Shown one piece after another: positions 2,707-36,703 of a stretch of DNA of 64,000 nucleotides. The DNA lies in NCBI GenBank assembly GCA_023246355.1, contig JAHFIQ010000001.1, positions 222,234-286,233 of the forward strand, written 5' to 3'. A program made the translations under genes and the position numbers. Below the pieces are notes generated by a model. That model had not been told where the DNA came from. It did not search any database and saw only the letters and a list, made by a program, of their open reading frames with translations. Origin of the DNA: Candidatus Uhrbacteria bacterium. GTDB taxonomy: Bacteria; Patescibacteriota; Patescibacteriia; UBA9934; GWF2-40-263. Each line of letters begins with the position of its first letter. Within the stretch, counting starts at the first letter, position 1.

Positions 2707-3651
2707 CTAGAACTGCACCAGGAAGCGGAAGGCGATGTTGACGAGCCGGTTGCCGCTCCAGTAGTCGTTGACATACGCGAGCCCACCGTCGCCGGTGTGG
2801 CCCACGATGAGCGCGCCCTGGGAACCGCAGCGGTTCTCGCACCACTCCACTGCATTGGTAGAACCAAGGTCTGGGAAGGAGTCGGCGGTGTGCTGGGTCA
2901 CCCAGTTGAAGAGGTTCCCCATGAAGTTGAAGGCCTTCACGGACTGGATGCGGGAATTGCCACCCAGGGGCTTGAAGACCCCTGAGACCTTGGGGAGGAT
3001 GTCCGCCACGAGGTCGTCTCCCTCACCCTTTTCCGAGTGCGGGTGGCTGAAGCGGGTCTTGAGGCCGATCGTCACCATGAGCCGGTCGTCGGGGTAGACG
3101 CCGTCCTGGTAGTTGGGCTTCTGGATGACCTCGAAGGCAATCCACCTTCCCAGCAACGGAAGAGGCGTGACATCAGCACCCGACAGGTATCGTTTCCAGT
3201 CAGGCTTCACGAAGCTCTTGGGATAGTCCTTCTCCTTCCAGGCCGGGACGAAGAAGAGCCCGAGCTTGAACTTGGCCATCAACCGACGTTGAGCACGGTT
3301 GAAGTCCGGTGGCTCAGGCAACTCGGTCTTGGGGCTGCCTTCCATCTCGTGCAAGGCGTCGAAGATCGTCTGCATCCAGGTGTGGAGCTGCGCCTTCCAG
3401 TCCTTTCCCGTGAGGCTGGGGTACTTGAGGCTCTTCAGGTGGTCGGAATGGGACTGCCGCCGCGACAGTTCCGCTTCTTCACGCTCGACGATCTCCGTCA
3501 GTTCAAGGAGGAAGCCTTCGCCGCGTGCTCCCAGCACTCCGGCGTGATTGAACAGGTCGAAGTACTTCACGATCGTGGGCATGCCCTCGCCGCCCGTACG
3601 ATTGACCTGACTGACGAGCTCCTTGACCCATGAAGGAATACTGAATTGCAT
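2707..3651 (-). CDS. high-GC hypothetical protein with FGE/C-type-lectin-like C-terminal domain; paralog of the DGR target
   Basis: About 60% GC. C-terminus VEWCENRCGSQGALIVGHTGDGGLAYVNDYWSGNRLVNIAFRFLV aligns with the DGR target C-terminus STWCWLRTRFGRGALDACDLGGVVRVF. Start chosen at MQFSIPSW (3651), which has a GGAGAG SD; the ORF track extends to 3666. Confidence 0.55.
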   Translation of the reverse strand: MQFSIPSWVKELVSQVNRTGGEGMPTIVKYFDLFNHAGVLGARGEGFLLELTEIVEREEAELSRRQSHSDHLKSLKYPSLTGKDWKAQLHTWMQTIFDALHEMEGSPKTELPEPPDFNRAQRRLMAKFKLGLFFVPAWKEKDYPKSFVKPDWKRYLSGADVTPLPLLGRWIAFEVIQKPNYQDGVYPDDRLMVTIGLKTRFSHPHSEKGEGDDLVADILPKVSGVFKPLGGNSRIQSVKAFNFMGNLFNWVTQHTADSFPDLGSTNAVEWCENRCGSQGALIVGHTGDGGLAYVNDYWSGNRLVNIAFRFLVQF

Positions 3652-3738
3652 TGTCTCTCCAGCCACAGGTACCAGTTCCTCCTCGACTGAGTAAACAGTC
3701 GATTTGGTTCTCCCTATGGACGGTTGTCCTACACGGTG

Positions 3739-3826
3739 CCGCCGTGCCGGTGTGAGTGCAAAACCGACGGTTTTCGGCTCTGCAAACGACTGGAGACTAT
3801 ACTCCCGTTTGGCGGAAAAGTCAAGG
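3739..3826 (-). promoter_or_regulatory. conserved promoter plus 5' leader element, copy A
   Basis: Minus strand reads TTGACT-17nt-TATAGT (-35 at 3819..3824, -10 at 3796..3801). The ~75-nt transcribed leader is about 85% identical to copy B at 16354..16442. Confidence 0.6.
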
Positions 3827-3846
3827 AATTGGTATGTTTGTGTGGT

Positions 3847-3984
3847 ATGTCAATAAAAAACGAGTATCCTGAAGGAGTTTACAGACCTATATTCGTCCAG
3901 CGTATGCGAGAGGCGCTCGACGATAAACCGATCTACTCTTACACAGACCCTGGCTCGCTCCTCAAACAGCTCGAAAAACTATGA
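3847..3984 (+). CDS. small hypothetical ORF (45 aa), possibly an orphan antitoxin-like protein
   Basis: ATG at 3847; its stop overlaps the rpe start (ATGA). No recognisable motif. Confidence 0.25.
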   Translation: MSIKNEYPEGVYRPIFVQRMREALDDKPIYSYTDPGSLLKQLEKL

Positions 3985-4673
3985 TCGAAATCGTGCCGGC
4001 CTTTTTGGCCGAATCAGAACGTGAGTTTGAGCGCAACCTTCGGCTGGTCGAGAACGACTGCCAGCTCATCCAGGTCGACGTGCTCGACGGCTCGTTGTTT
4101 CCCAACACCTGCTGGTTCGACGCGGAGCGAATCGGCAACCTCAAGACCAACGTCGAAATGGAACTTCACCTCATGGTCGAGAATCCCATTCCCATCATCG
4201 AGGCGTGGAAAAAATATGTGCCAACCTTCAAACGCGCCATTGTTTCCGCGGAGATGCATCGACCAACAGGCGCGGTCACGGGCTTCATCAAAGACGAACT
4301 CAAACTCGAAGTTGGCGTGGCGCTGAGTCCTGAGTCGCCCCTCAAAGAAATCGAAGAAGTGCTCCACCAAGTTGATGCGCTCACCATCATGAGTGTGCAT
4401 CCAGGTCGCCAAGGTCAAACCTTTGGCGATCCTGAGCACGGGGGAAACCTCCCGTTCATCTTGGAAAAAATCGCCCAAGCTCGGGCGCATCGACCTGATC
4501 TCATGATCGAAGTAGACGGAGGCGTGACAGCTGAACTCATCCCGGCTCTGATAAAAGCTGGTGCCAATCGTCTGTGTGTTGGTGGCGCGATCTTCAAATC
4601 AACTGACCCAGCTGGTACACTGAAGGAAATGAACCAATACCTTTATGAACTTTTGCAAAACAGCGCAGGCTAA
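3981..4673 (+). CDS. rpe: ribulose-phosphate 3-epimerase
   Basis: LHLMVENP and MIEVDGGV motifs; 230 aa. The last three codons and the stop are supplied by a REP element. Confidence 0.85.
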   Translation: MIEIVPAFLAESEREFERNLRLVENDCQLIQVDVLDGSLFPNTCWFDAERIGNLKTNVEMELHLMVENPIPIIEAWKKYVPTFKRAIVSAEMHRPTGAVTGFIKDELKLEVGVALSPESPLKEIEEVLHQVDALTIMSVHPGRQGQTFGDPEHGGNLPFILEKIAQARAHRPDLMIEVDGGVTAELIPALIKAGANRLCVGGAIFKSTDPAGTLKEMNQYLYELLQNSAG

Positions 4674-5457
4674 AGCCTGCGGCTACCTCACAATCTTTAC
4701 CCTGCTCGCCATCCTTGCCCTACCTGTTCACGCCGCCACCGTCTCCGCTGACGACCTCACGCCTGGCGATCTGATCCGTGGGGAATCTTTTTCCGCTGTC
4801 TACTACTATGCAGAAGATGGGCTGCGCTACGTTTTCCCAAATAGCAAAGTCTACTTCACGTGGTACGAGGACTTCGACGATGTGAGCTGGCTTTCCGATG
4901 AAGATCTCGCCACCATAGAAATCGGCGGCAACGTCACCTACAAACCAGGCATCAAGATGGTCAAGATCAACTCCAGTCCCCAGGTCTATGCGGTTGGAGC
5001 TGGTGGTATCTTGCGCGGCATTGCATCTGAAAACGTTGCACAAGAACTCTACGGCGAGGATTGGAACCAGAATATTGATGACATCCCTGATGGATTTTTT
5101 GGCAACTATGAAATTGGAGAGGACATCGAACTTTCAACCCAGTACGATCCAGATGTTGAAGAGCAAGACGCTCAAGACATCGATGACGATCGCGACATCA
5201 AACCGTTTGTGGAGATCACGGTCACAGAGGAAGGCTACAGCGAACCAACCGTGACTATCGACTCAGGAACAGCCGTCCGATGGACGAATGAGGGAGAAGA
5301 AAACCACACCGTGACGGAATGGGATAGCGTCTGGGGATCTGGAACGCTGAAGCCCGGTCACCACTTCACCCACTATTTCCGGGAAGAAGGCACCTGGCAC
5401 TACTATTCAAAAACCGACGATCGCAACATCTTTGAAGGTGCTGTGATTGTGGAATAA
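4645..5457 (+). CDS. secreted protein with degenerate cupredoxin-like C-terminal domain (paralog A)
   Basis: Signal peptide. About 60% identical to 5533..6348, but the copper-site residues are replaced (WHYYSKTDD versus FHCKYHSSM). Confidence 0.6.
   Translation: MNFCKTAQAKACGYLTIFTLLAILALPVHAATVSADDLTPGDLIRGESFSAVYYYAEDGLRYVFPNSKVYFTWYEDFDDVSWLSDEDLATIEIGGNVTYKPGIKMVKINSSPQVYAVGAGGILRGIASENVAQELYGEDWNQNIDDIPDGFFGNYEIGEDIELSTQYDPDVEEQDAQDIDDDRDIKPFVEITVTEEGYSEPTVTIDSGTAVRWTNEGEENHTVTEWDSVWGSGTLKPGHHFTHYFREEGTWHYYSKTDDRNIFEGAVIVE
4663..4687 (+). repeat. REP element copy 1 (GCGCAGGCTAAAGCCTGCGGCTACC)
   Basis: Palindromic core GCAGGCT.AAGCCTGC with a GTAG/CTAC end. The same 25-mer recurs at 12876, 13404, 13442 and 48977. 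Confidence 0.8.
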
Positions 5458-5532: not shown

Positions 5533-6348
5533 ATGACAAAACGCCTTTCCTTTTTGTCAGTCTCGCTGCTCGCCATAGCCATGGTTTCAAGCGTTGTTCT
5601 CTCCGGGCTCGTTCCAACCGCTGGCGCCACCAGCCTCACAGATCCAGAAGATCTGGAGCCAGGTGACCTTATCCGTGGAGAAACATTTTCTGCTGTCTAC
5701 TATTACGGTGAAGATGGTTTCCGCTATGTGTTCCCCAACAGCAAAACCTACTTCACTTGGTATGAAGACTTCGACGACGTGGTTTGGTTGTCTGACTCGG
5801 ACATGTCCACGATCCAAATCGGCGGCAACGTCACCTACAAGCCAGGAGTAAAAATGATCAAAATCAACTCTGACCCAACCGTCTACGTGGTAGGCATGGG
5901 CGGAGAAATCCAAGGCATTCCATCGGAGGAAGTAGCTGAAGCGCTCTACGGTTCTACCTGGAACCAACAAATTGACGATGTCCCAGATGGATTCTTTAGC
6001 AACTACACCATGGGCTCGGATCTGGAATTCGCCTCGCAGTTTGATCCAGATGCAGAAGAAGCTGAGGCCGACTCCATCAACGATGACAAAGCTCTTCAAC
6101 CCTACGTCACCATCACCATCACGGACAACGAATACAGCGACGAGAACCTCACGGTCGAAGCGGGAACCGCCGTGCGCTTCGTGAATGAAGGAAGCAGCAA
6201 CCACACGGCAAGTGCAGACGACGGCTCCTGGGGAACCGGAACCCTCGCCAGTGGCAAGAACTTCTCGCGTTACTTTGACGAGGAAGGCGACTATGACTTC
6301 CACTGTAAGTATCATTCAAGCATGACGGGAACGATCACTGTTGAGTAA
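5533..6348 (+). CDS. secreted cupredoxin (plastocyanin/azurin-like) domain protein (paralog B)
   Basis: C-terminal YDFHCKYHSSMTG fits the type 1 copper site pattern H..C..H....M, with an upstream His at NHTA; signal peptide. Confidence 0.65.
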   Translation: MTKRLSFLSVSLLAIAMVSSVVLSGLVPTAGATSLTDPEDLEPGDLIRGETFSAVYYYGEDGFRYVFPNSKTYFTWYEDFDDVVWLSDSDMSTIQIGGNVTYKPGVKMIKINSDPTVYVVGMGGEIQGIPSEEVAEALYGSTWNQQIDDVPDGFFSNYTMGSDLEFASQFDPDAEEAEADSINDDKALQPYVTITITDNEYSDENLTVEAGTAVRFVNEGSSNHTASADDGSWGTGTLASGKNFSRYFDEEGDYDFHCKYHSSMTGTITVE

Positions 6349-6422: not shown

Positions 6423-7322
6423 ATGCCGAATTTGACTATGGGTCCCAAGGTTCGAAAACCTTTGCATCTGCATGACAAAAAACTCAAGCAACTAGAGGAA
6501 CGTGCACAGATGATCCGCGAGGACGTGATCGACATGCTGGTGCAAGCTGGTTCTGGACACTCGGCTGGACCTCTTGGGATGGCGGACATCTTCACCGCCC
6601 TCTATTTTCACGTCCTGGTTCATGACCCCAAACGCCCTGACTGGAAAGACCGCGATCGTCTAATCCTGAGTAACGGCCACATCTGTCCCATCCGCTACGC
6701 CACCATGGCGCATGCTGGCTACTTCCCAAAAAAACTGTTGATGACCCTGCGCAAGCTCGGCTCACCGTTGCAAGGACATCCTGAACGAGAAAAACTTCCG
6801 GGGGTTGAGACTACCTCTGGTCCACTTGGTTCAGGATCATCACAAGCCGCAGGACTTGCCTACACCGCTCTCTTGGATCGATCCCCATGGCGAGTGTACT
6901 GCGTGATGAGCGACGGAGAATTGGCTGCCGGACAAACCTGGGAAGCCATGCTGTTTGCTAGCCGCAACAAACTCTACAACTGCACATTCGTGATCGATCG
7001 CAACAACATCCAAATCGATGGCACGACCGAGGAGATCATGCCGCTTGAACCCTTGGCCGCAAAGTTCGAAGCGTTCAATCTCAACGTCGAGCACTGCGCA
7101 GGAAACTCGATTCGAGATTTTGTCACAGCGATTGAGCGTGCGCACTCTGTCAGTGAAAAACCCACCGTGATCATCGCAGACACGATCCCCGGCTACGGCG
7201 TTGAGTTCATGGAGCATGACTTTCTCTGGCACGGAAAACCGCCATCCCCTGGAGAAGAGGCCCACCTGGCCATCGAACAACTCAGAACACTCTCAGGAAA
7301 AATAATAAGTGAGCATCAATAA
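6423..7322 (+). CDS. tkt: transketolase, N-terminal subunit (split tkt)
   Basis: GSGHSAGPLGMADI thiamine-diphosphate-binding region; 299 aa matches the N-terminal half only. Confidence 0.85.
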   Translation: MPNLTMGPKVRKPLHLHDKKLKQLEERAQMIREDVIDMLVQAGSGHSAGPLGMADIFTALYFHVLVHDPKRPDWKDRDRLILSNGHICPIRYATMAHAGYFPKKLLMTLRKLGSPLQGHPEREKLPGVETTSGPLGSGSSQAAGLAYTALLDRSPWRVYCVMSDGELAAGQTWEAMLFASRNKLYNCTFVIDRNNIQIDGTTEEIMPLEPLAAKFEAFNLNVEHCAGNSIRDFVTAIERAHSVSEKPTVIIADTIPGYGVEFMEHDFLWHGKPPSPGEEAHLAIEQLRTLSGKIISEHQ

Positions 7323-8286: not shown

Positions 8287-9333
8287 TCAACCGTTCTTGA
8301 ACTTCATACGTTTTACCAAATTGAGTAGTCGCCTCTGATTCCTAAATTCCTGACCATGGTCGAAAGCCGACAAACAGGACTGAATTGTCTCACTGAAATT
8401 TTCCTCTAGGATGCCCGTATCCTCGTATTGCGCTACTAAATTCTCAACCCGTCCGAAAAGTCGTTTTCGCGTTGTTCTCCTCATTGTTCGTACCGTTGGT
8501 CTCAACACCCAACCAAGAAAGTCGACACCTTGTTGGTATGTCCGAATGGAAACCTTGTACGGATGAAGGCGCAAAAGTAGACGTCGTGAGAGATACGATT
8601 CAATTTGCAGAAGGGCTGATTCCAAAAACTGACGACTCTCGTGAAGGAGAATAAAATCATCACAAAACCGAATGTACCACCGTATCCTCAGGTGTTCCTT
8701 CACCCAATGGTCGAACGCATTGAGGTAGACGTTGGCAAAAAGTTGGCTGGTGACATTCCCAAGTGGGAGTCCGCACGATACCCCCTTGACAGACAAGTGG
8801 CTTGCTACGACTTGGCCTATAAGCCGCAACAATGGTTCATTGGTGACACGCCGTGCAAGCATCCCCATAAGCACATCGTGCTGTATCGAATCGAAAAATT
8901 TGGAGATGTCGCACTTGAGCGCATAAATGCGACGCGAGTCGTTACAGGATCCTCGTCTCAAAAAATCTTCAAGTCGGTCAATCGCCGCATGCGTCCCTTT
9001 TCCCTTACGCGAAGCAAACGAATCGAAAATGAAGGATGACTCGAAAGCCGGTTCCAAGACGTTCACAAGCGCCTGATGTACAACCCTGTCACGAACGCTT
9101 GCTTTGCTGATGTACCGACGTTTCGGATCATGAATATAAAATTGCTCATACCCACCGTGGAGATAGGATCCATTCTCAAGGTCGTGTACCAGATCAAACA
9201 ATTCATCCTCAAGCCTCATGGAAAATTGAAGCACATCTTGCTTGGCCATCTTTCCACAACTGAATACTTCCCAGGCATCAAACAAATTTTCTAACGAAAT
9301 AACTTCTTGTAGTGATCCGTTCCTATGAGTCAC
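8287..9333 (-). CDS. DGR reverse transcriptase
   Basis: 348 aa; LPLGNVTSQLFANVYLNAFD is the DGR-specific SQ variant of RT motif 4, and FCDD stands in for YxDD. Confidence 0.85.
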   Translation of the reverse strand: MTHRNGSLQEVISLENLFDAWEVFSCGKMAKQDVLQFSMRLEDELFDLVHDLENGSYLHGGYEQFYIHDPKRRYISKASVRDRVVHQALVNVLEPAFESSFIFDSFASRKGKGTHAAIDRLEDFLRRGSCNDSRRIYALKCDISKFFDSIQHDVLMGMLARRVTNEPLLRLIGQVVASHLSVKGVSCGLPLGNVTSQLFANVYLNAFDHWVKEHLRIRWYIRFCDDFILLHESRQFLESALLQIESYLSRRLLLRLHPYKVSIRTYQQGVDFLGWVLRPTVRTMRRTTRKRLFGRVENLVAQYEDTGILEENFSETIQSCLSAFDHGQEFRNQRRLLNLVKRMKFKNG

Positions 9334-9361: not shown

Positions 9362-9736
9362 TTGACTGGATTCTCCGGTGAAGAATTCGGATTGGTTCAT
9401 AAATTGTATGAATGGTACAAGCTCCTGCACACCGATGTGATTAGGTTCCCCAAAACGGAACGATACACGATTGGTGAAGTGTTGAAGATGCGGACACTTC
9501 AGCTCATCGAAGGAATCTGGGAGGCGAACTCCCTACCACTCCCAGAACGCCTTGCCTTACTCGACCGACTACAACGATCACTCGACCTTATAAAAATCCT
9601 CATTCGCCTCACGTACGATCTAGGAATCTACAAACGTGATGGTTACATCTATCGGGAAAACCGACTCATGGAAATCGGTCGCATGCTCGGAAGTTGGCGA
9701 AAGAAGACACGAGGCCGCTTGGGTCTCGTGTCTTAA
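9362..9736 (+). CDS. avd: Avd-like accessory variability determinant (four-helix-bundle, TIGR02436-like)
   Basis: 124 aa, basic; LYEWYKLL, FPKTERYTIG and a C-terminal EIGRMLGSWRKK resemble Avd proteins. TTG start. It lies on the strand opposite to the RT and TR. Confidence 0.6.
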   Translation: MTGFSGEEFGLVHKLYEWYKLLHTDVIRFPKTERYTIGEVLKMRTLQLIEGIWEANSLPLPERLALLDRLQRSLDLIKILIRLTYDLGIYKRDGYIYRENRLMEIGRMLGSWRKKTRGRLGLVS

Positions 9737-9746
9737 CAGTTAACGG

Positions 9747-9867
9747 CTTCCACGGCACGGCCACCTTCATTGTCGTACGGGATCGAGAGATTGTCAGCGT
9801 CGTTCCTGTTGACCCTCACCTCGCCGTCGTTGTCGTTGGCGTTGAGAGCACCCTGGCCGAAGCGCGT
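9747..9867 (-). repeat. DGR template repeat (TR)
   Basis: 121-bp match to the VR. On the coding (minus) strand every one of the 18 differences is an A in TR (AAC codons N-A-N-D-N-D..N-R-N..). The 3' end carries the IMH*-like GGTGGCCGTGCCGTGGAAG. Confidence 0.85.
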
Positions 9868-10145
9868 TGCGCCGCTTCCTTCCTTACTCACCAGAGGGAA
9901 CCCATGGGTTGCCTCCTGAATTCCGGGATCCGGAAATGTATTCGGACGGACAGACTGTTTGGCGATCCGCCATAAAAGCGGCACGAAGTGGTTCAACTGT
10001 TTACTCACCGTTACCGACTTCTCCGATTATCATGAACCGGATGCTCGTGGGTAACAGCAGGATGTTGGTAACCAACAAGTTCTCGCTTATTGGTCTACAA
10101 ACCTTCACCAGCAGTATTGTAACAAGATCCAAAACAAAATTAATA

Positions 10146-10195: not shown

Positions 10196-10942
10196 TCAAG
10201 CAGCATTCTTGACCACTTCCACGGCACGGCCACCCTCATTGCCGAACGGGATCGAGAGAGAGGCAGCGTCGCACCTGAAGACCCTCACCACGCCGCCGAG
10301 GTCGCAGGCGTCGAGAGCACCCCGGCCGAAGCGCGTGCGCAGCCAGCACCAGGTGCTGACGTCGATGTGCTCGCCGATGAGGTCGCGGTGCGTCCAGTAG
10401 ACGATCGCGTATTCCTCCAGCGAGAGGAGCTTCACCGCCGCGGTGAGGTCATTCCAGCTCGTATTGATCCGGGGGCACCTGGGAGCGATCTCCACAGTGA
10501 ACCAGTAACCAGCCTGGGCGATCTCCCAGCCGATCTTGGCACGGTCGTCGGCGTTCGCGACAGTCCAGTGATTGGACTGACCGTGCGCAATCATCCACCC
10601 TTCATAGGTCATCTCGACCGTCGACGGGCGGTAGAACAGCTCGCGACCTTCGCGGCGCCAGCGCTTGAGGGTCGTGTTGGAGACGCCGGGCCTGGGCACC
10701 GCGATCGTGAACCCGCGGGCGCGGAAGTTCGCCTCGATGGCGACACGGCGCTCCTCGGCCAGGTCGACCTTGGGCCTGTGGTCCTTCTCGCCGGCCTTTG
10801 CGCGAACTTCGGCCTCGCTGGTGCCGTCGATGATCGCCTGCAGGACAGTACGAGCAATCGCGGCCTTGGCCGGATCGGCGAGGGCGTGGCGTTGTGCTTC
10901 GTCAAACTGGCGCCGGAGCGCCAACTCAATCATGGCTTCCAT
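10196..10942 (-). CDS. DGR target protein (high GC; C-terminal C-type-lectin/FGE-like variable domain)
   Basis: VR sits at the C-terminus. Start chosen at MEAMIE, which has an AAGGAAAG SD; the ORF track extends to 11035. Confidence 0.7.
   Translation of the reverse strand: MEAMIELALRRQFDEAQRHALADPAKAAIARTVLQAIIDGTSEAEVRAKAGEKDHRPKVDLAEERRVAIEANFRARGFTIAVPRPGVSNTTLKRWRREGRELFYRPSTVEMTYEGWMIAHGQSNHWTVANADDRAKIGWEIAQAGYWFTVEIAPRCPRINTSWNDLTAAVKLLSLEEYAIVYWTHRDLIGEHIDVSTWCWLRTRFGRGALDACDLGGVVRVFRCDAASLSIPFGNEGGRAVEVVKNAA
10216..10336 (-). repeat. DGR variable repeat (VR) at the 3' end of the target gene
   Basis: Encodes TRFGRGALDACDLGGVVRVFRCDAASLSIPFGNEGGRAVE against the TR-encoded TRFGQGALNANDNDGEVRVNRNDADNLSIPYDNEGGRAVE. 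Confidence 0.85.
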
Positions 10943-11035
10943 GGTCTTTCCTTTGCTTGTGCCCATGTCGCGCCGGAGCGCAGAGGCACGTTTTGCCCCA
11001 AATTCCAGGCCGAACGCCCAGGTTGGAACCAACAA

Positions 11036-12925: not shown

Positions 12926-13402
12926 ATGCTTCCAATCGAACGACCACATCGACTGGAACGTGACGATTACGAAGGTTTTCTCTGTTGTACATTCACTTGT
13001 TGCATTGAAAATAGGAAAAACTTTTTTGTCACACCGGAGATCTTTTCAATCTTCGAATCAAAGCTGCGACACGTTCTTGAAAAGAATCATTGTGGTGCTC
13101 ATGTTTATCTGTTCATGCCAGACCACCTTCATATTTTAGCAGAAGGAAAATCAGAAGAAGCGGATCTCTGGAAAATGATCGTCGACTTTAAGCAGCAAAC
13201 TGGATATTGGCTCTCAAAAAATGGAAATGGAATTCGATGGCAAAAAGATTTTTATGATCACATCCTTCGAGAGGAGGAGGATGTGACAAAGCACATGGCC
13301 TATATTCTCGATAACCCCATCCGTGCTGGTCTTGCGCGAGATTGGAGGGACTACCTGTACAAAGGATCGACACTCTATAATCTTCATGAACTCGAAATCT
13401 AG
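12926..13402 (+). CDS. REP-associated tyrosine transposase (RAYT, IS200/IS605-like Y1 HUH transposase)
   Basis: HLHIL (HuH) and YILDNPIRAGLA motifs; flanked by REPs in opposite orientations. Confidence 0.8.
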   Translation: MLPIERPHRLERDDYEGFLCCTFTCCIENRKNFFVTPEIFSIFESKLRHVLEKNHCGAHVYLFMPDHLHILAEGKSEEADLWKMIVDFKQQTGYWLSKNGNGIRWQKDFYDHILREEEDVTKHMAYILDNPIRAGLARDWRDYLYKGSTLYNLHELEI

Positions 13403-13403
13403 G

Positions 13404-13428
13404 GCGCAGGCTAAAGCCTGCGGCTACC
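13404..13428 (+). repeat. REP element copy 3
   Basis: GCGCAGGCTAAAGCCTGCGGCTACC. Confidence 0.8.
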
Positions 13429-13441
13429 GTCAAAAACCTAC

Positions 13442-13466
13442 GCGTAGGCTAAAGCCTGCGGCTACA
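13442..13466 (+). repeat. REP element copy 4
   Basis: GCGTAGGCTAAAGCCTGCGGCTAC. Confidence 0.75.
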
Positions 13467-13472
13467 ACTTCT

Positions 13473-15564: not shown

Positions 15565-16275
15565 CTACTTCCGGCGAAGACGCACGGTCCCGTAACCCGG
15601 GTCGGCGAGGCCAGAGCGCCTGTCGAGGTCGAGCCTCACCTGACCCCTCCACACCTCGAGGAAGGCACAGTTCATGCGGCTGTCACGGAGCACCGTCCTG
15701 GGGAGGTCGATGGAGTGCTCGTTCTCCACCACGATCGTTGGGTGAAGGGCGTAGGCGAAGACGCCTTCGAGAGCCGTACCGGCCAGGACGTCGCCGACGA
15801 GCTCGTCTCGGCAGTGGTCGGGGCGACGGTTGCGGTTCTTGCGTCCGTCGTCGTGGCGGAACCAGAACGGCTCGGTGGGGAGCGGGAAGTTCTGGTCGAA
15901 GGGCTCGGCTGAGTCCTCGGCGTAGCCCAGCTCCTCGTACTCGATTTCCAGCATCCTGCAGGAGCGCAGAAGTCCCGGACGAGGGTCGCACAGGGAGAGC
16001 AGCGGTAGCTCTGGGTCGTCGGCGACCAACCCTTCCGGAATCTTGGGGATCCCGGCCAGGTACGCCTTGAAGTTCTTGGCGCCGACACTCGGGTCACGAC
16101 CGAAGCCCCGATCCCACAGGCGCTTGGCCTGAATGCGCCACTGGTTCACGCCGCCCATCTCCAGGCGACGGATAAGTTCCTCGACCTCTGAGCCGATGCC
16201 TTCCTGACCGGCGCTCAGTCGCGCAGCCTGGATCTCGTGGAGCTTGGCCACATGGCCAACATCGAACAGTCTCAT
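15565..16275 (-). CDS. high-GC hypothetical protein (236 aa)
   Basis: About 66% GC. Shares the conserved promoter/leader with the 2707 gene; weak similarity to the N-terminal regions of 2707 and the DGR target. Confidence 0.5.
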   Translation of the reverse strand: MRLFDVGHVAKLHEIQAARLSAGQEGIGSEVEELIRRLEMGGVNQWRIQAKRLWDRGFGRDPSVGAKNFKAYLAGIPKIPEGLVADDPELPLLSLCDPRPGLLRSCRMLEIEYEELGYAEDSAEPFDQNFPLPTEPFWFRHDDGRKNRNRRPDHCRDELVGDVLAGTALEGVFAYALHPTIVVENEHSIDLPRTVLRDSRMNCAFLEVWRGQVRLDLDRRSGLADPGYGTVRLRRK

Positions 16276-16353
16276 TTGAAACTCCGTAAGTCGGTATCCT
16301 CACAAGAGCCTAAGCCCTCTGTTTGGTACGCCGACGGACAGATGCGCACAGTT

Positions 16354-16442
16354 CCGCCGTGCCGGTGTGTGTGTGCAAAACCGGAGGATTCCGGCTCTGC
16401 AAACGACTGGAGACTATACTCCTGTTTGGCGGAAAAGTCAAG
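16354..16442 (-). promoter_or_regulatory. conserved promoter plus 5' leader element, copy B
   Basis: TTGACT(16436..16441)-17nt-TATAGT(16413..16418); the leader is about 85% identical to copy A. Confidence 0.6.
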
Positions 16443-16462
16443 AGTTGATATAGTATTCGTAT

Positions 16463-16657
16463 ATGAATTACCCATTCACGGTCACAAAAAAGGACGAGAC
16501 ATACACTGTTCAATTTGGTCAAGAATATTGGGAAAAATTTGCTGCCGCCATGGGTCTTTTGTCTGACGAATGTCTTGCAAGCATCCAGATGGCTGAGGAG
16601 GATTTCAAAAAAGGACGTGTACTCACTATAAAATCTTTCAGAGAGCTCGAGGATTAA
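16463..16657 (+). CDS. type II antitoxin (64 aa)
   Basis: Small acidic ORF; its stop overlaps the toxin start (ATGA). Confidence 0.5.
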   Translation: MNYPFTVTKKDETYTVQFGQEYWEKFAAAMGLLSDECLASIQMAEEDFKKGRVLTIKSFRELED

Positions 16658-16932
16658 TGGCTATGCGTTCCCTCATTGCCTCATCTGAATTCAGGCGTCG
16701 ATACAATGAACTTCCAGAAACAGTCAAAGATCGACTCGACAAACAGAAGGAACTCCTCACGACAGACATTCGACATCCTTCGCTCCACGTAGAAAAGCTC
16801 GCACCCAAGAGCAAAAATATGTGGAGTTTTCGAATAGATATTCACTACCGTGTTCTCTTTCAAGTGCTTGATAACGGAGACCTCTTTCTCCTGACCGTCG
16901 GAACCCATGATTGGGTGTATCGACGCATCTGA
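16657..16932 (+). CDS. RelE/ParE-superfamily toxin
   Basis: WSFRIDIHYRVLFQVLDNGDLFLLTVGTHD is the RelE/ParE C-terminal pattern. Confidence 0.6.
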   Translation: MAMRSLIASSEFRRRYNELPETVKDRLDKQKELLTTDIRHPSLHVEKLAPKSKNMWSFRIDIHYRVLFQVLDNGDLFLLTVGTHDWVYRRI

Positions 16933-16936
16933 ATCT

Positions 16937-17941
16937 ATGTACGACGTCATAACCATCGGCGCGGCCACACGAGACGTTTTTCTCGTGTCTGACAAATTCA
17001 TCGCACTCAAATCACGCAAGTTTGGAACAGGTGCGGGAGAATGCGTGGCGCTTGGATCAAAAATTGACATTGACGAGCTTGTGCTGACAACTGGTGGCGG
17101 CGCAACCAATGCGGCGGCCACGTTTGCTCACTTAGGATTTCGTACCGCTACCATTTGTCGCATCGGTGATGACTCCCCTGGCAAAGACGTGGTTGAGGAC
17201 CTGACCGCCCAGGGAGTCAGCACACATTTGGTGCGCATGATGAGAGGCGGCGAGACGGCGTACTCAACGCTTCTCACCATGAAAGATGGTGAGCGCACGG
17301 CTCTCGTGCATCGGGGAACAAGCTCTTCATTCACACAGGCCGATATTCCTGTATCGATCTTTGAACAGACACGTTGGATCTATCTCACTTCCCTGGGAGG
17401 AAATCTTCCGCTCGTACGAAAGATCGCCACAGCCGCGCAAAAGGCCAATGTAAAAATTGCGTGGAACCCAGGTGGAGCTGAACTCAAAGGTGGATTTGCA
17501 AGCATCGAAACACTGCTTCCGATGATTTCAGTTCTGATCATGAACCGCGAGGAAGCAATGCTTCTCACAAAAAAATCCGGCCTAAAGGCCGGATCCGGCT
17601 CCGCCGGAAAGGACCTCACAAAAATCTTTGAATTACTCCACACAGATGGGGCTGTGCATCTGGTCACCGACGGTACCAACGGATCAACGGTGTATCGCGA
17701 CGGCTGGATGGCCCATGCGGGAACCAGTGGAGTGAACGGCATTTCTCGCACCGGAGCTGGTGACGCATTTGGATCTGGATTTGTCGCCGGACTCATCAAA
17801 ACGGAAGATCTCAAAGAAGCCCTGCGTGTGGGCACACTGAACGCCGAGTCTGTCATTCAACAATTCGGCGCAAAAAAAGGTATTTTGAAATCCTGGCCAG
17901 GACAACTTAAAAAACAACGGATCAAGATTTCGGTTTTATGA
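16937..17941 (+). CDS. PfkB-family sugar kinase (second copy)
   Basis: TGAGDAFGSG motif; start at MYDVITIG. Confidence 0.75.
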   Translation: MYDVITIGAATRDVFLVSDKFIALKSRKFGTGAGECVALGSKIDIDELVLTTGGGATNAAATFAHLGFRTATICRIGDDSPGKDVVEDLTAQGVSTHLVRMMRGGETAYSTLLTMKDGERTALVHRGTSSSFTQADIPVSIFEQTRWIYLTSLGGNLPLVRKIATAAQKANVKIAWNPGGAELKGGFASIETLLPMISVLIMNREEAMLLTKKSGLKAGSGSAGKDLTKIFELLHTDGAVHLVTDGTNGSTVYRDGWMAHAGTSGVNGISRTGAGDAFGSGFVAGLIKTEDLKEALRVGTLNAESVIQQFGAKKGILKSWPGQLKKQRIKISVL

Positions 17942-18924
17942 GACATCACGTTTTCGTGACGCGGAAAATTCCAGACGAAGGGCTCAAGATGCTCAAAGCC
18001 GATAAGCGCATCGCGCTTTCTGTCTATCAAAAAAACCAAGTCATTCCACGCGCTGAACTTTTGCGTCGTGTGAAAGGGATGAACATCATCCTTTCGATCC
18101 TCACCGAAAAAATCGATGCAGCGGTCATGGACGCAGCTGGACCATCCCTGAAGATGATCGCCAACTACGCGGTTGGGTTTGATAACATCGATCTTGCCGA
18201 AGCAAAAAAACGAGGTATCGCCGTCACCAATGCGGCTCATCCGTGTGTCTCTGAATCTGTGGCTGAGCACACCATCGCTTTGTTGTTTGCCTTGGCTCAC
18301 AGGATCGTAGAAGCAGATCACTTCACGCGGTCAGGTCAGTACAAGGGCTGGGAGCCTGAGCTTCTGCTCGGAGGTGACCTCATGGGCAAAACACTCGGCC
18401 TCATCGGCACAGGTAATATCGGCACCATGGTTGCGCGCCGACTCTCAGGAGGATTTGGCATCAAGATTCTCTACACGGACGTGAAACGCAATCCTGCATT
18501 TGAAAAAGCATTCGGTGCAAAATTTAAAAGCAAGGAAGCGCTCCTGCGCGAATCTGATTTTGTGTCCCTGCATGTCCCGCTACTTCCCGCAACGCAACAC
18601 CTGATGAATCATGCCGCGTTTGGACTCATGAAATCGTCTGCCTTCTTGATCAACACGGCGCGTGGTCCTATCGTTGATTCTGCCGCCCTCGTAGATGCCT
18701 TGAAGAAAAAACAAATTGCTGGCGCCGCTCTTGACGTCTTCGAAGGCGAGCCTACATTTGCTCTCAAAAAAAGTGATGCGACGTTTCTTCAGCATGCCTG
18801 GAACGTCATTCTCACCCCACACACGGCCTCGGCCACGGTTGAAACACGACAAGCCATGAGTCGTACAGCCGCTGAAAATATCTTGGCGTTTGTAAGAGGC
18901 AAACGACCACCGAATCAAATTTAA
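17938..18924 (+). CDS. D-isomer-specific 2-hydroxyacid dehydrogenase (glyoxylate/hydroxypyruvate reductase-like)
   Basis: GLIGTGNIGTMVARRL NAD-binding motif and catalytic-domain pattern. Confidence 0.8.
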   Translation: MRHHVFVTRKIPDEGLKMLKADKRIALSVYQKNQVIPRAELLRRVKGMNIILSILTEKIDAAVMDAAGPSLKMIANYAVGFDNIDLAEAKKRGIAVTNAAHPCVSESVAEHTIALLFALAHRIVEADHFTRSGQYKGWEPELLLGGDLMGKTLGLIGTGNIGTMVARRLSGGFGIKILYTDVKRNPAFEKAFGAKFKSKEALLRESDFVSLHVPLLPATQHLMNHAAFGLMKSSAFLINTARGPIVDSAALVDALKKKQIAGAALDVFEGEPTFALKKSDATFLQHAWNVILTPHTASATVETRQAMSRTAAENILAFVRGKRPPNQI

Positions 18925-26171: not shown

Positions 26172-26286
26172 TTGTCCTGGCGCCTACCTACTCTCGCGCA
26201 ATCGCACTACCATTGGCCCAAGAGAGCTTAACGGCCGTGTTCGAGATGGGAACGGGTGTGGCCTCTCAAGGAAGTGGCACCAAGAC
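26172..26286 (-). rRNA. rrf: 5S rRNA
   Basis: Reverse complement contains ..CCCGTTCCCATCTCGAACACGG..GCGAGAGTAGGTAGGCGCCAGG. Confidence 0.8.
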
Positions 26287-26623
26287 AAAGGAGTCTTTCT
26301 TTTTTTGTAGAAGAGATATTTCTCGCTTGAGACGAATCAAACGTAGAAATGGTTGTAGAGCTCGACCTATTAGTACTGCTCCGCTGAACGTCTTACGACG
26401 CTTACACGTACAGCCTATCAACCTCATAGTCTCTGAGGGGTCTCAAATGAAAACTAATCTTGGGAACGGCTTCGCACTTAGATGCTTTCAGCGCTTATCC
26501 GTACCGAACGTAGCTACCCGGCATTGCCCTTGGCAGGACAACCGGTACACGAGAGGTTCGTTCATTCCGGTCCTCTCGTACTAGGAATGAATTCCCTCAA
26601 TTTTCGATGCCCACGGCAGATAG

Positions 26624-26656
<33 letters not shown>

Positions 26657-26665
26657 ACTCACGTA

Positions 26666-26697
<32 letters not shown>

Positions 26698-27283
26698 AAC
26701 CTTCTCCAGCTCCAGGATGCGATGAGTCGACATCGAGGTGCCGAACCTCCCCGTCGCTGTGGACGCTTGGGGGAGACTAGCCTGTTATCCCCGGAGTAGC
26801 TTTTATCCGATGAGCTTCCGCCGTCCTATTTCGTACGGTCGGATCACTAACTTCTGCTTTCGCAACTGCTCGACTGGTCGGTCTCGCAGTAAAGCTGGCT
26901 TCTGGGTTTGCCCTTAGAGCGCGATTTCCATCCGCGCCAAGCCAACCTTTGTAAACGCCTCCGTTACATTTTAGGAGGCACCCGCCCCAGGTAAACTACC
27001 CACCAGATCCTGTCCCTGACTCCGGTTTCACGGAGTCTGGTTAGAATGCACACGACACAAGGGTGGTATCTCACTGGTGCCCGAAGGCTCCCACCTATTC
27101 TCAACATGTGATGCATGAACCCAAGATCAAGTTATAGTAAAGCTTCACGGGGTCTTTTCGTCTAGCCGCGGGTAGTGAGCATCTTCACTCACATTGCAAT
27201 TTCGCCGAGTCCATCGTTGAGAGAGTTCTCAACTTGTTATGCCATTCGTGCAGGACGGAACTTACCCGTCAAGGAATTTCGCT

Positions 27284-28002
27284 CGGGTCTGTTACACTCC
27301 CATTCATGGGAGGAGGTGATCATTTCTGTCACCTTCTGCATGTCACCATGCAGGTCGGACTATATCATCGTCTGTTAAGACGTTTGGCGTGTAGTCTCTG
27401 AGGATTCTAGAAATCGTGATGGAACCTTTCGGTTCATACTTTGAATAATGCGAGCAGCATCTTGAAGACCTTCAATTGTTTGATGTCGTCTGTTTTCCAT
27501 TAACTGTAAAACGGCGACAAACTTTTCGAAGTCTTCTTGTTTTGCTGTTCGTAATGGATGTTGAATGAAGAATGGGATGATCTTCAAACGAAGATCCCTC
27601 GTTGACCTCACACAATATCTCAGCAACGATTCGCGGTGATTGTCTGACCTTCGATTAAGATAGATCGATCCACACTGAAAGTGATCATGGATCAACTTCA
27701 GTGCCTCTCGACTCTTCTCACCTTGGGTTACGACAAACTCTGGGAACAATTGCCAGCCAAAGCTAGTGGTTGAATTACGGATCATGCTGACTGAGAAGCA
27801 ACCCTCTCCGTCGACAAATCCTACAATCCACCCAACGATATCTAGTCTTTCCTGCTGATTGTCTGGTCTATTAATCGCCATACTATGGCCGAATAATACC
27901 ATAGACCAGGTGTTCCAGCATATAGCCAAATTTTCTCTCTACATCTCCGCGGCAAACGAAGTTCAAGAGGAGGACATTCACCTCACTAAGGCAGTGTTAT
28001 TC
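27284..28002 (-). mobile_element. group I intron in 23S rRNA (inserted after ..GTCCTAAGGT, E. coli position about 1917) carrying a homing endonuclease gene
   Basis: The exon sequence is continuous when 27284..28002 is removed (GTCCTAAGGT | AGCGAAATTCCTTG). The intron ends in G and the upstream exon ends in U. Confidence 0.75.
27375..27929 (-). CDS. LAGLIDADG homing endonuclease
   Basis: IVGFVDGEGCF motif; lies wholly within the intron. Confidence 0.8.
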   Translation of the reverse strand: MAICWNTWSMVLFGHSMAINRPDNQQERLDIVGWIVGFVDGEGCFSVSMIRNSTTSFGWQLFPEFVVTQGEKSREALKLIHDHFQCGSIYLNRRSDNHRESLLRYCVRSTRDLRLKIIPFFIQHPLRTAKQEDFEKFVAVLQLMENRRHQTIEGLQDAARIIQSMNRKVPSRFLESSETTRQTS

Positions 28003-28856
28003 ACCTTAGGACGATTATAGTTATCGCCGGCGTTCATCCGCGCTTCAGTCGAAGGCTGCCGCCCTTGCGGGCTTGACCCCCTTCCTTAACGTTCGGACAC
28101 TGGCCAGGCATCAGCCCCTATACATCACCTTACGGTTTAGCAGGGACCTGTGTTTTTGGTAAACAGTCAGTTGAGATCTTTCGCTGCGGGTCGCATCCTC
28201 CCGGATGCAACCAGGCCTTATCCCGAAGTTACGGCCACTGTTTTGCCTAGTTCCTAAACGATGGTTCTCTCGTACGCCTTGGCACATTCACGTGCCCATC
28301 TACCTGTGTCGGTTTCCGGTACGGGTCTCTCTCACATAATCTTAGCAGCTTTTCTTGGCGCCCTGTCCTTTCCCCTTGTCAGTCCGATTGGACCAACTTG
28401 CGATTGTCTCCGTGCTCGAGATTGAACTCAGCTTGGCGGACTTCCCTACCAAGCGCCTAGAAACACCCAACGCTATAGCCATAGAGCGCGGGAAATTTCA
28501 GAACGCGTCCCTGCGTCAGTGTGAAAGAGAGTGCAGGAATAATAACCTGCTGTGCATCGACTACGCCTTTCGGCCTCGCCTTAGCTCCCGACTAACCCTG
28601 GGTCGATTCGCGTTGCCCAGGAAACCTTAGATTTACGGCGGACGGGATTCTCACCCGTCTTTTTGCTACTCATGCCAACATTCTCTCTTCGCATCGCTCC
28701 ACCCGTGGTCACCCACGAGCTTCAGTGCTGATACGAATGCTCCCCTACCGCGCCCTTCACTAACGTGAAGGACACCCTCAACTTCGGCACGTCATTTAGC
28801 CCCGGTACATTTTCGGCGCAAGAAAGCTTGACCAGTGAGCTGTTACGCTATCTTTA

Positions 28857-28894
<38 letters not shown>

Positions 28895-29511
28895 AGCCTT
28901 CTCACCACCTTTTACACTTAATGACGATTTAGGGGCCTTAGTTTGAGATCTGGGCTGTTGCCCTTTCGACCAATGGAGCTTCGCCCCCATGGTCTGACTG
29001 CCGGGAACACATAATGGTATTCGGAGTTTGGTTAGGCTCGCTAGCCGAAGCCGCTAAGCCCATTCAGTGCTCTACCCCCATTATGTTATTTACCGACGCT
29101 AGTCCAAAAACTATCTCGGGGAGAACCAGCTATTACCGAGTTCGATTGGAATTTCTCCGCTATCCACGCGTCATCCCCGACTTTTGCACAGGTCGTGGGT
29201 TCGGGCCTCCACGGGTTGTTACACCCGCTTCACCCTGCGCATGGATAGGTCACCCGGTTTCGGGTCGTGTGCGCGTCACACTCTATCTTTCTACTCGACC
29301 CCGCTTACCAAACTTGGCAGCGATTGAATCGAGTAGAGAGAAAGATCACGCGGGTTAACGCTCGCTTTCACTACGCCTTCGTCCCGGAGGACTTAAGCAA
29401 GCGACGCACAGCACACTCGTTGGCTCATTCTTCAATAGGAATGCCATCACCCCTTGCGAGGCTCTGACTCCTTGTAAGCATACGGTTTCAGATACTATTT
29501 CATTCCCCTCT

Positions 29512-29544
<33 letters not shown>

Positions 29545-30509
29545 GTTCACTATCGATCAGAACATGTATTTAGCCTTACCAGATAGTCCCGGCAGGTTCC
29601 TACAGGATTTCACGAGTCCCGTAGTACTCAAGGATGTCACTTATGATGGTGCGAATGAATTTCACATACAGGACTATCACCTTCTGTGGTTCTCTTTTCC
29701 AAGAGATTTTGTTATTCATCACACAGGTCCCATCACTCGTCTTTGAAAGAAGACGACCGTAACCCTTACAACCCCTACAACCACAACGGCTTCCACCTTT
29801 CGCCACCGTTTACATGTTGACTTGCGTCGCGATGCTCACCGTAACTTCATGATCGTAGGTTTGGGCTATTTCCTGTTCGCTCGCCGCTACTAAGGAAATG
29901 GATTCGCTTGCACGTTTCCACGCATCGAGAACTCGTGCGTAAAAATGTGAAACGAATAATACTTTTTCTTTTCCTCTGGGTACTGAGATGTTTCACTTCC
30001 CCAGGTTCCCTTCCTGCACCTATGTATTCAGTACAGGACCATGCGGCATTCCCCGCATGAGGTTTCCCTATTCGGAAATCTTCGGATCAAAGGTTGCTTG
30101 CCACCTCCCCGAAGCTTATCGCAGGCTGCTACGTCCTTCATCGGCACGTTCTGTCGAGCCATTCACCGTATGCCCTTATTAATGCTCTACAACCATTTCT
30201 AAATTCGATTTAGAGAATGGTGTATCTCTTCTACCCTATTGTTCAATTGTGAAAGGTCGTCTGGCCGATATGAGAGACGGCTCTATTCTTCGGTGCAGAT
30301 TTTGTCATCTGAACCCAAGGACACAAAAAACCGCGCAGGCGGTCTTCACCGTAACCAAAGTGTTTACGATAAGATCGCTCTGTCATCGTGAAACTTGTGT
30401 TACGTTTGTCATAGATGTGGTCTCCGTGAGCTCTCCCTCTCTTCAATCCCTCTGGATTCAGCCTCGGTTCAGGGGACAAAAGAGGAAGAACGTGTTTCAA
30501 ATTACTGGC

Positions 30510-36229: not shown

Positions 36230-36703
36230 ATGGAAAAAGAAATGACCCTCAATCAACTTGCCAACAAAATGGACCAACGCTTTGATGGGTTAGAGAAGCG
36301 ATTCGAAGGGATTGACCAACAGTTCGTTGGGATAGAGAAACGATTCGAAGGGATCGATCAACGGTTCGATGGGATGGATCAACGGTTCGATGGGATGGAG
36401 AAGCGGTTCGGTGAGATGGATCAACGGTTCGATGGGATGGAGAAGCGGTTCGGTGAGATGGATCAACAGTTCGTCGGAATAGAAAAGCGCCTTGGGAACG
36501 TGGAAAACAAAGTGGACGGCATTGCCACGGACTTGGAAGATTTAGCGATTATGACAAAGATGGGATTCGATGATCTGGGAGAAAAAGTCGACGCAAACAC
36601 TAAATCGATCTCTGTTCTCAGTCACCGAGTTGGGAAGCTACAAGACAAGTCCCTGGATCATGACGTGCGAATCAGACGACTTGAAAGAGCCCAACCAGCC
36701 TAA
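36230..36703 (+). CDS. coiled-coil repeat protein with about nine tandem 11-residue repeats (consensus KRFEGIDQRFDGMx)
   Basis: 33-nt nucleotide period between about 36290 and 36490. Confidence 0.6.
   Translation: MEKEMTLNQLANKMDQRFDGLEKRFEGIDQQFVGIEKRFEGIDQRFDGMDQRFDGMEKRFGEMDQRFDGMEKRFGEMDQQFVGIEKRLGNVENKVDGIATDLEDLAIMTKMGFDDLGEKVDANTKSISVLSHRVGKLQDKSLDHDVRIRRLERAQPA

Follow-up and report, generated by a model that had tools for sequence, protein, structure and literature searches.

Two dispersed genes on the minus strand of the window (the whole 64,000-nt stretch of Candidatus Uhrbacteria DNA that was analysed), gene A (2707..3651) and gene B (15565..16275), have in common a strong promoter and a folded 5' leader block. 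On balance, we regard this block as probably the promoter-proximal part of a structured 5' leader of ~130–140 nt that gates the translation of C-type-lectin-fold genes of the variable-protein type, the kind mutated by diversity-generating retroelements (DGRs), in a clade of Uhrbacteria. The leader is likely to be an undescribed translational control element; it is new and narrowly distributed, and it falls outside every Rfam family. Literature searches returned no description of such a leader.

A common promoter and leader block before two dispersed genes

A repeat search of the window matched 76 nt at 92% identity between 3750-3825 and 16367-16442, and the 64 kb contain exactly two occurrences of the 21-mer CTCCAGTCGTTTGCAGAGCCG, where none is expected (100 shuffles); the window holds these two leader copies only. 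From the -35 box through the end of P4 copies A and B are 87% identical, as against 48% for the coding sequences. The first-pass annotation had described a leader of about 75 nt at about 85% identity, of which the shared block stands and the length does not, the 5' UTR being ~130–140 nt, with weaker homology running on past the conserved core. Its TTGACT-17-TATAGT promoter was recovered in both copies by a promoter scan (Table 1), and the hexamers, kept across copies at a spacing within the 16–18 nt of sigma-70-type promoters, make this a promoter of that type in sequence, with predicted activity. TTGAC, CGCCAA and TAnnnT are retained in 13 module starts. The difference in the stem that had been pointed out between the copies is also as described, i.e., CCGA-aaaccg-UCGG in copy A and CCGGA-aucc-UCCGG in copy B, the quoted stem being the top of a longer hairpin of 10–11 bp, GCAGAGCCG(G)A...U(C)CGGUUUUGC.

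Two further pairings were considered for the start of the block. A three-way junction over the -10 box (CCGCC...GGCGG with GGAG-TATAGT-CUCC) was rejected, its pairings not being kept elsewhere and the region being a canonical promoter. The 5' CUCC(AG) is uncertain as an anti-Shine-Dalgarno (anti-SD) sequence: its probable position is upstream of the transcription start, and its letters vary (CUCA, CACC, UUCG).

Table 1. Coordinates of the leader copies, their genes and the DGR of the window
Feature	Position	Strand	Description
Copy A promoter	3796..3824	(-)	-35 TTGACT 3824-3819; -10 TATAGT 3801-3796; scan 10/12
Copy A promoter spacer		(-)	17 nt; holds conserved TTCCGCCAAAC
Copy A leader core	3729..3793	(-)	covariance model match 89.4 bits, E = 4.5e-21
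Copy A putative transcription start	~A3791	(-)	
Copy A P3	3783-3758	(-)	GCAGAGCCGA/UCGGUUUUGC, loop AAACCG
Copy A linker	P3 to P4	(-)	ACUCACACCG
Copy A P4	3747-3731	(-)	GCACGG-CGGCA-CCGUGU
Copy A 3' part	3652..3728	(-)	RNAalifold, five A-type leaders; fold z-score -3.8
Gene A	2707..3666	(-)	314 aa from AUG 3651; predicted helical N-terminal domain and C-type-lectin/FGE fold
Copy B promoter	16413..16441	(-)	-35 TTGACT 16441-16436; -10 TATAGT 16418-16413; scan 10/12
Copy B leader core	16344..16410	(-)	covariance model match 83 bits, E = 2e-19
Copy B putative transcription start	~A16408	(-)	
Copy B P3	16400-16375	(-)	GCAGAGCCGGA-AUCC-UCCGGUUUUGC
Copy B P4	16362-16346	(-)	GCACGG-CGGAA-CUGUGC
Copy B 3' part	16276..16343	(-)	RNAalifold, eight B-type leaders; fold z-score -3.3
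Gene B	15565..16275	(-)	236 aa; predicted helical N-terminal domain and C-type-lectin fold
Divergent promoter at copy B	16426..16454	(+)	TTGGCG-17-TATAGT, TG extension; scan 9/12
DGR RT	8287-9333	(-)	
DGR bAvd	9362-9736	(+)	
DGR TR	~9740-9867		adenines on minus strand, AAC codons
DGR VR	10209-10336		3' end of high-GC target ORF 10196-11035(-)

A cmscan of the whole window against Rfam 15 (4,227 families) at gathering thresholds returned only 23S rRNA, 5S rRNA and tRNAs, and window positions 3600-3900, searched with permissive filters at E <= 10, gave no match. The 23S rRNA match (26175-30194, minus strand) extends over 3,846 nt against a model of 2,925 nt and contains several insertions (e.g., of 64 and 68 nt), such insertions being typical of bacteria of the candidate phyla radiation (CPR); the 5S rRNA adjoins it, and there is no 16S rRNA in the window.

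Repeats of other kinds are also present in the window. REP-like palindromes (GCGCAGGCTAAAGCCTGCGGCTACC) lie at 4663-4693, 13404-13434, 13442-13472 and 48977-49007, two of them directly after the ORF of an IS200-like Y1 transposase (12926-13402; PF01797), an arrangement that suggests a REP/RAYT-type system. At least eight in-frame 21-nt tandem repeats resembling ATGGA(T/G)CAACGGTTCGATGGG form a heptad-repeat coding segment at 36269-36478. A 248-nt direct repeat at 74% identity (4750-4997 and 5647-5894) matches a tandem pair of paralogous ORFs (4645-5457 and 5533-6348) with a weak cupredoxin-like match, and this ORF pair recurs in L011, L024 and L025.

Further copies precede the same gene families

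A search for further copies, which the first-pass annotation had suggested, found 16 more in contigs of Candidatus Uhrbacteria and other Patescibacteria, bringing the total to 18. Pattern scans contributed four true loci from representative genomes and four from metagenome contigs, after exclusion of chance matches in GC-rich organisms (L009, L010, L018, L020 and L022), and further copies were obtained from contigs encoding homologs of A or B. A covariance model built on the 65-nt core matches the 18 copies at 29–94 bits, and every match lies in sense orientation directly upstream of an ORF of family A, family B or family C, a paralog of A. Thus, orientation, placement between promoter and start codon, and recurrence before homologous genes are, in all 18 copies, those of a cis-regulatory leader in the generic sense. 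A single narrow clade supplies most of the copies, at 80–90% identity; there are at least two per genome, with L001 and L026 each carrying two, 2–3 kb apart. No true copy was found in viral contigs, where one loose pattern gave chance matches only and two strict patterns gave none. A dispersed mobile repeat of the REP or MITE kind was rejected on account of the two copies per 64 kb, their fixed orientation and their position, always before the same gene families.

At the margins of the family, the divergent copy of L027 scores 13.8 bits (E = 1.9e-4 in a 211-nt upstream region) and is supported as an extension of it, whereas the look-alike leader of L028 is marginal (5.5 bits) and those of L007, L025 and the window's DGR target (~11060-10965) are undetected by the models; these last four leaders have two hairpins that are similar by eye and not significant with models. 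The contig of L025, which is syntenic with the window, has a gene-free stretch of 2 kb (16015-18130) with two weak leader-like matches of ~10 bits each at 17938-17988(-) and 17222-17283(+), possibly remnants of a decayed lectin-gene cassette.

Both window proteins belong to families without annotation: the 34 homologs of A and the 59 of B are all unannotated, their named sources being Candidatus Uhrbacteria or Patescibacteria, and neither Pfam and PADLOC nor profile searches of PDB sequences gave a match for A, B or the window's DGR target. AlphaFold models built from homolog alignments are confident for both (mean pLDDT 92.9 for B and 87.8 for A) and predict a helical domain joined to a C-type-lectin/formylglycine-generating-enzyme (FGE) fold. 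On these models both proteins adopt the fold of DGR variable proteins, in which the variable region is C-terminal. The coding regions had been called barely alignable, and this holds at the level of sequence: besides the low nucleotide identity, BLASTP (E = 0.37) and hhalign (probability 0.4%) rule out sequence homology between the two proteins. What the two share is the fold. Family C (L011 and L012), which also bears the leader, is joined to A at E = 3e-29 over the lectin domain. Within a leader-bearing B-family gene of L005 there is a near-perfect 87-nt tandem duplication (29 codons; 4567-4740).

The conserved core and its covariation

The core consists, in order, of the invariant single-stranded 5' segment AGUCGUUU, hairpin P3 of 10–11 bp and rich in G·U, the linker (A)CACACCG, and hairpin P4 of 5–6 bp with a CGGNA pentaloop. 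The first-pass annotation had observed that changed bases in one stem keep the pairing, and this now extends to covariation in both hairpins: across the 18 copies 10 of 16 pairs are changed on both sides and 92% of pair cells are standard, a percentage inflated by the fitting of the alignment to the model, as compared with 33–40% (~37%) in shifted registers, and none of 500 shuffles matches the observed values. An independent MAFFT alignment of 13 copies has 94% standard pair cells and three P3 pairs changed on both sides. P4 is invariant inside the main clade, and in divergent copies its stem is swapped in a compensatory manner (CGUGG/CCACG in L005, GUACGG/CCGUAC in L027). Compensatory substitutions of the sort expected of a structured leader are therefore present, within a narrow phylogeny and a model-fitted alignment; the figures are supportive rather than definitive, because the alignment is fitted to the model and most of the sequences are closely related.

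The kind of pairing bears on whether RNA or DNA is under selection. G·U is the commonest pair at two positions of P3, and the helix would therefore exist only in the sense RNA and neither in DNA nor in an antisense transcript, which favours RNA over a DNA operator. In L026 (~9812-9900), an insertion of ~75 nt sits within the P3 loop and the stem is retained. The selection on structure that had been proposed, in a cis-regulatory RNA or an operator, is thus supported by the further copies and by the covariation, with the former of the two favoured.

By eye, each version with a CGG loop also has CCG 0–2 nt before P4, and the two divergent copies without a CGG loop (in L024, and at 2881 of L005) are without CCG as well. 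This co-occurrence would fit a small pseudoknot or a bipartite protein site.

Family-specific 3' domains predicted to reach the ribosome-binding site

Past P4 a weaker homology continues (GUCC-AU-GGGAGAC-AAAC...), and each gene family has a 3' domain of its own. Entire leaders fold more stably than their shuffles (z-scores -2.5 to -3.8). In copy A, RNAalifold pairs CCAUAGG (3719-3713) with CCUGUGG (3669-3663), the latter segment holding an upstream in-frame GUG at 3666 that is AUG in orthologs and is probably the start of gene A. Hairpin P6 (CGACUG, 3701-3696, with CAGUCG, 3689-3684) covaries and abuts GAGGAGG (3684-3678), and the start-codon helix and P6 are both retained in the five A-type leaders with one compensatory pair each.

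In copy B, the long-range helix P5, predicted independently by RNAalifold, joins UCUGU-CC-GUCGG (UCUGUCCGUCGG, 16342-16331) to CCGAC-UU-ACGGA (CCGACUUACGGA, 16294-16283) and overlaps the SD GGAG (16285-16282), of which it covers a part only; there is also an internal hairpin at ~16321-16301. Several P5 pairs are changed on both sides among the B-type leaders (e.g., columns 97-150: GC in two, UA in two, AU in two, CG in one). In the C type, UCCUUUGC pairs by eye with GCAAGGGA, adjoining GGAAGGAG. A scan found no sense-strand terminator in the leaders of copies A and B, which makes control by attenuation unlikely, and no upstream ORF was read from the leader sequence.

A leader of this form might be a constitutive 5' UTR element that senses nothing, i.e., a stem-loop set against 5'-end-dependent RNases or a device for tuning basal translation. 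The placement of P3, 8 nt from the predicted 5' end, the RNase J and RNase Y genes seen in leader loci, and the want of a demonstrably conserved alternative, mutually exclusive fold all agree with such an element, which would nonetheless need neither the invariant AGUCGUUU, CACACCGG and CGG loop, kept while the proteins are 45–60% identical, nor a conserved helix to the SD or start codon; we take it to be quite unlikely.

The upstream half as a probable back-to-back promoter

The conserved region extends ~15 nt beyond the -35 box on its upstream side (cctAgcAAattCTTGAC) and takes in the spacer TTyCGCCAAAC, that is, DNA outside the leader itself. The reverse complement of the conserved CGCCAA is TTGGCG, the -35 box of a divergent promoter that at copy B ends 8 nt ahead of the start codon (ATG) of a 64-aa ORF (16463-16657), and every leader copy has a divergently oriented neighbour gene. 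By this reading of the sequence, the conserved spacer probably serves a second, divergent promoter as its -35 box, and the upstream half is read as a back-to-back promoter travelling with a gene cassette, which would explain conservation at the level of DNA without calling for an operator.

A more far-reaching version would make the entire block a DNA-level module, a bidirectional promoter with transcription-factor operators in which the hairpins are palindromic operators. It is true that the conserved region includes the sequence upstream of the -35 box and the spacer CGCCAAA, which are not RNA if transcription starts at AGUCG, that the spacer reads as a divergent -35 box with a divergent neighbour at every copy, and that L008 duplicates the promoter half alone (6431-6470). 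Such a module would account for the promoter part and not for +1 to +140, however, and it sits poorly with the RNA-like features of the core: upper P3 and P4 vary with complementarity kept, unlike protein-bound palindromes, in DNA or on the other strand each G·U pair would turn into an A·C mismatch, the P3 loop accommodates the ~75-nt insertion of L026, and no transcription-factor gene is consistently linked. On this evidence the DNA-level module is unlikely, and a translational leader downstream of a back-to-back promoter is preferred.

In L008, a 40-nt direct repeat of the upstream half of the module (ATCGCCCGCATCCTAGCAATTCTTGAC..CGCCAAAC; 2817-2856 and 6431-6470, 90% identity) flanks a cassette that comprises the B gene, TR, Avd and RT and is inserted within a glycosyltransferase operon. 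The repeat has the look of a footprint left by an insertion or duplication, one that supplies an outward promoter anew. In the window, ORFs of 64 and 91 aa with overlapping stop and start (16463-16932, plus strand) diverge from gene B and are probably a toxin-antitoxin pair with a near-leaderless mRNA from the back-to-back promoter; HicAB, AbiEii or PIN modules adjoin other leader copies (L001, L003, L024 and L026).

These settings raise the question of whether the similarity of the block might be owed mainly to a promoter cassette that was recently duplicated, or homogenised by gene conversion, along with mobile lectin/DGR genes, its structure being unselected. The varied sites, beside toxin-antitoxin modules and inside glycosyltransferase operons, the 40-nt duplication flanking the B-plus-DGR cassette of L008, and the resemblance of same-genome copies would all be expected under it, but the module occupies orthologous positions in several MAGs and metagenome contigs, which come from different samples, and diverges less than the coding sequence. 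Between window copy B and L008, for instance, the module is 88% identical as against 59% of nucleotides in the coding sequence and 46% in the protein, with the same trend in other comparisons; since the module is the more conserved of the two, it is not merely a recent duplication. Compensatory changes, too, are unexpected without structural selection, and we accordingly rate an unselected cassette as very unlikely. Both L001 copies share an odd P3 (CUCAG/CUGAU type) yet precede different gene families, which therefore indicates gene conversion or co-evolution with a genome-specific partner.

Relationship to DGRs

Three leader-bearing loci have DGR-type repeats. L008 is the one locus whose VR and TR were aligned base by base: a second copy of the final 127 nt of its B homolog follows 442 nt downstream with 84% identity, the mismatches are at adenines of that downstream copy (the TR), and bAvd and RT genes are adjacent. 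In L011 and L012, the C-family genes have VR/TR-type repeat pairs at their 3' ends. The window has a DGR of its own (Table 1), and the TR/VR mismatches within its repeat are at TR adenines. An adenine-tolerant scan of the window matches this TR only to the VR at 10209-10336, which rules out A and B as targets of the window DGR. Both genes therefore count as paralogs of the variable-protein type that have no cognate TR within the 64 kb. Nor does the leader resemble a DGR template or variable repeat, lying as it does at the 5' end of the genes and sharing no sequence with TR or VR.

The canonical leader is absent from the true DGR target of the window. That gene, which starts probably at an ATG near 10965, has its own two-hairpin leader after TTGACA-17-TATTGT, beginning GGGCGUUC..GGAAU and vaguely resembling the divergent leader at 4166 of L005.

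A direct part for the leader in DGR function, e.g., in marking variable-protein transcripts or loci for RT-Avd, would agree with its being exclusive to variable-protein-type genes, three of them with adjacent TR, Avd and RT. It appears exceedingly improbable, in that a cognate TR is missing from the vicinity of most genes with the leader, the two of the window among them, while the only VR that the window TR matches belongs to a gene without the canonical leader. In the DGR of Bordetella phage BPP-1, moreover, the known cis requirements (IMH and a hairpin) are at the 3' end of the VR and not in the 5' UTR.

A proposed translational gate and its meaning

In the scheme that we infer for the transcript ends, the 3' extent of the leader and its regulation, the unit would comprise a strong sigma-70-type promoter, AGUCGUUU, P3, CACACCG, P4 and a family-specific domain closed by P5, in which the segment after P4 (UCUGUCC, CCGUCC or UCGUCC) would pair with the purine-rich stretch of the SD or start codon. 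In the folded state the ribosome-binding site would be occluded, P5 blocking the ribosome. A putative trans-acting factor that recognises the invariant P3-linker-P4 would shift the equilibrium and so co-regulate all paralogs; an RNA-binding protein is a candidate, a small ligand being less likely. A metabolite riboswitch is possible but not the preferred reading: the genes downstream are not metabolic ones, which would be atypical of that class, and they offer no clue to a ligand.

A stronger reading would have the leader act as a dedicated switch made of RNA, whether of a new riboswitch class or of an RNA-protein type, that gates the whole DGR-type lectin repertoire of Uhrbacteria. We would give this no better than an outside chance; were it true, it would be a first case in CPR of a hypervariable protein repertoire under coordinated post-transcriptional control, with a possible coupling to the DGR machinery. 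To our knowledge regulatory RNAs in CPR/Patescibacteria are almost unexplored, and we know of nothing on the regulation of DGR-diversified proteins.

Short of that reading, the leader links two families of the C-type-lectin fold that are unrelated in sequence (B, and A together with its paralog C) in what appears to be a single regulon, which predicts a trans-acting factor or signal common to them. Genes A and B, for which there is no Pfam annotation, are also marked out by it as belonging to the DGR variable-protein class, and the leader provides a compact, sequence-defined handle (~65 nt for the core, ~140 nt in full).

Comparison with known systems

Several known classes of elements share some of the features of the leader. 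The cis elements of DGRs (TR RNA, VR, IMH and hairpin) are associated with the same gene class, and the targets in L008, L011 and L012 carry the leader; unlike them, it stands at the 5' end of the target gene, 0.7–0.9 kb from the VR, and also on paralogs that lack a TR. RNA thermometers (fourU and ROSE) are similar in pairing pyrimidine strands with SD-like purines via G·U-rich helices, to which the pairings of UUUU with AGAG in P3 and of UCUGUCC with GGAUGGA in P5 may be likened. Neither fourU nor ROSE was matched in the Rfam search of window positions 3600-3900 at E <= 10, and the leader differs in being far larger and multi-domain, with strong conservation of loops and linkers that is needless in thermometers.

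SD-sequestering translational riboswitches and protein-binding leaders (e.g., ribosomal-protein leaders and compact riboswitch aptamers) differ from it in that the leader has no match in Rfam 15 and precedes genes for C-type-lectin-fold variable proteins, which are not metabolic, transport or ribosomal; its candidate sensor hairpins, moreover, lie 5' of the putative SD-occluding helix rather than being enclosed by it. With both it has in common a promoter-proximal 5' UTR with covarying hairpins and invariant single-stranded nucleotides, a helix downstream that is predicted to occlude the SD or start codon, the lack of a terminator, and several copies per genome before a coherent set of genes.
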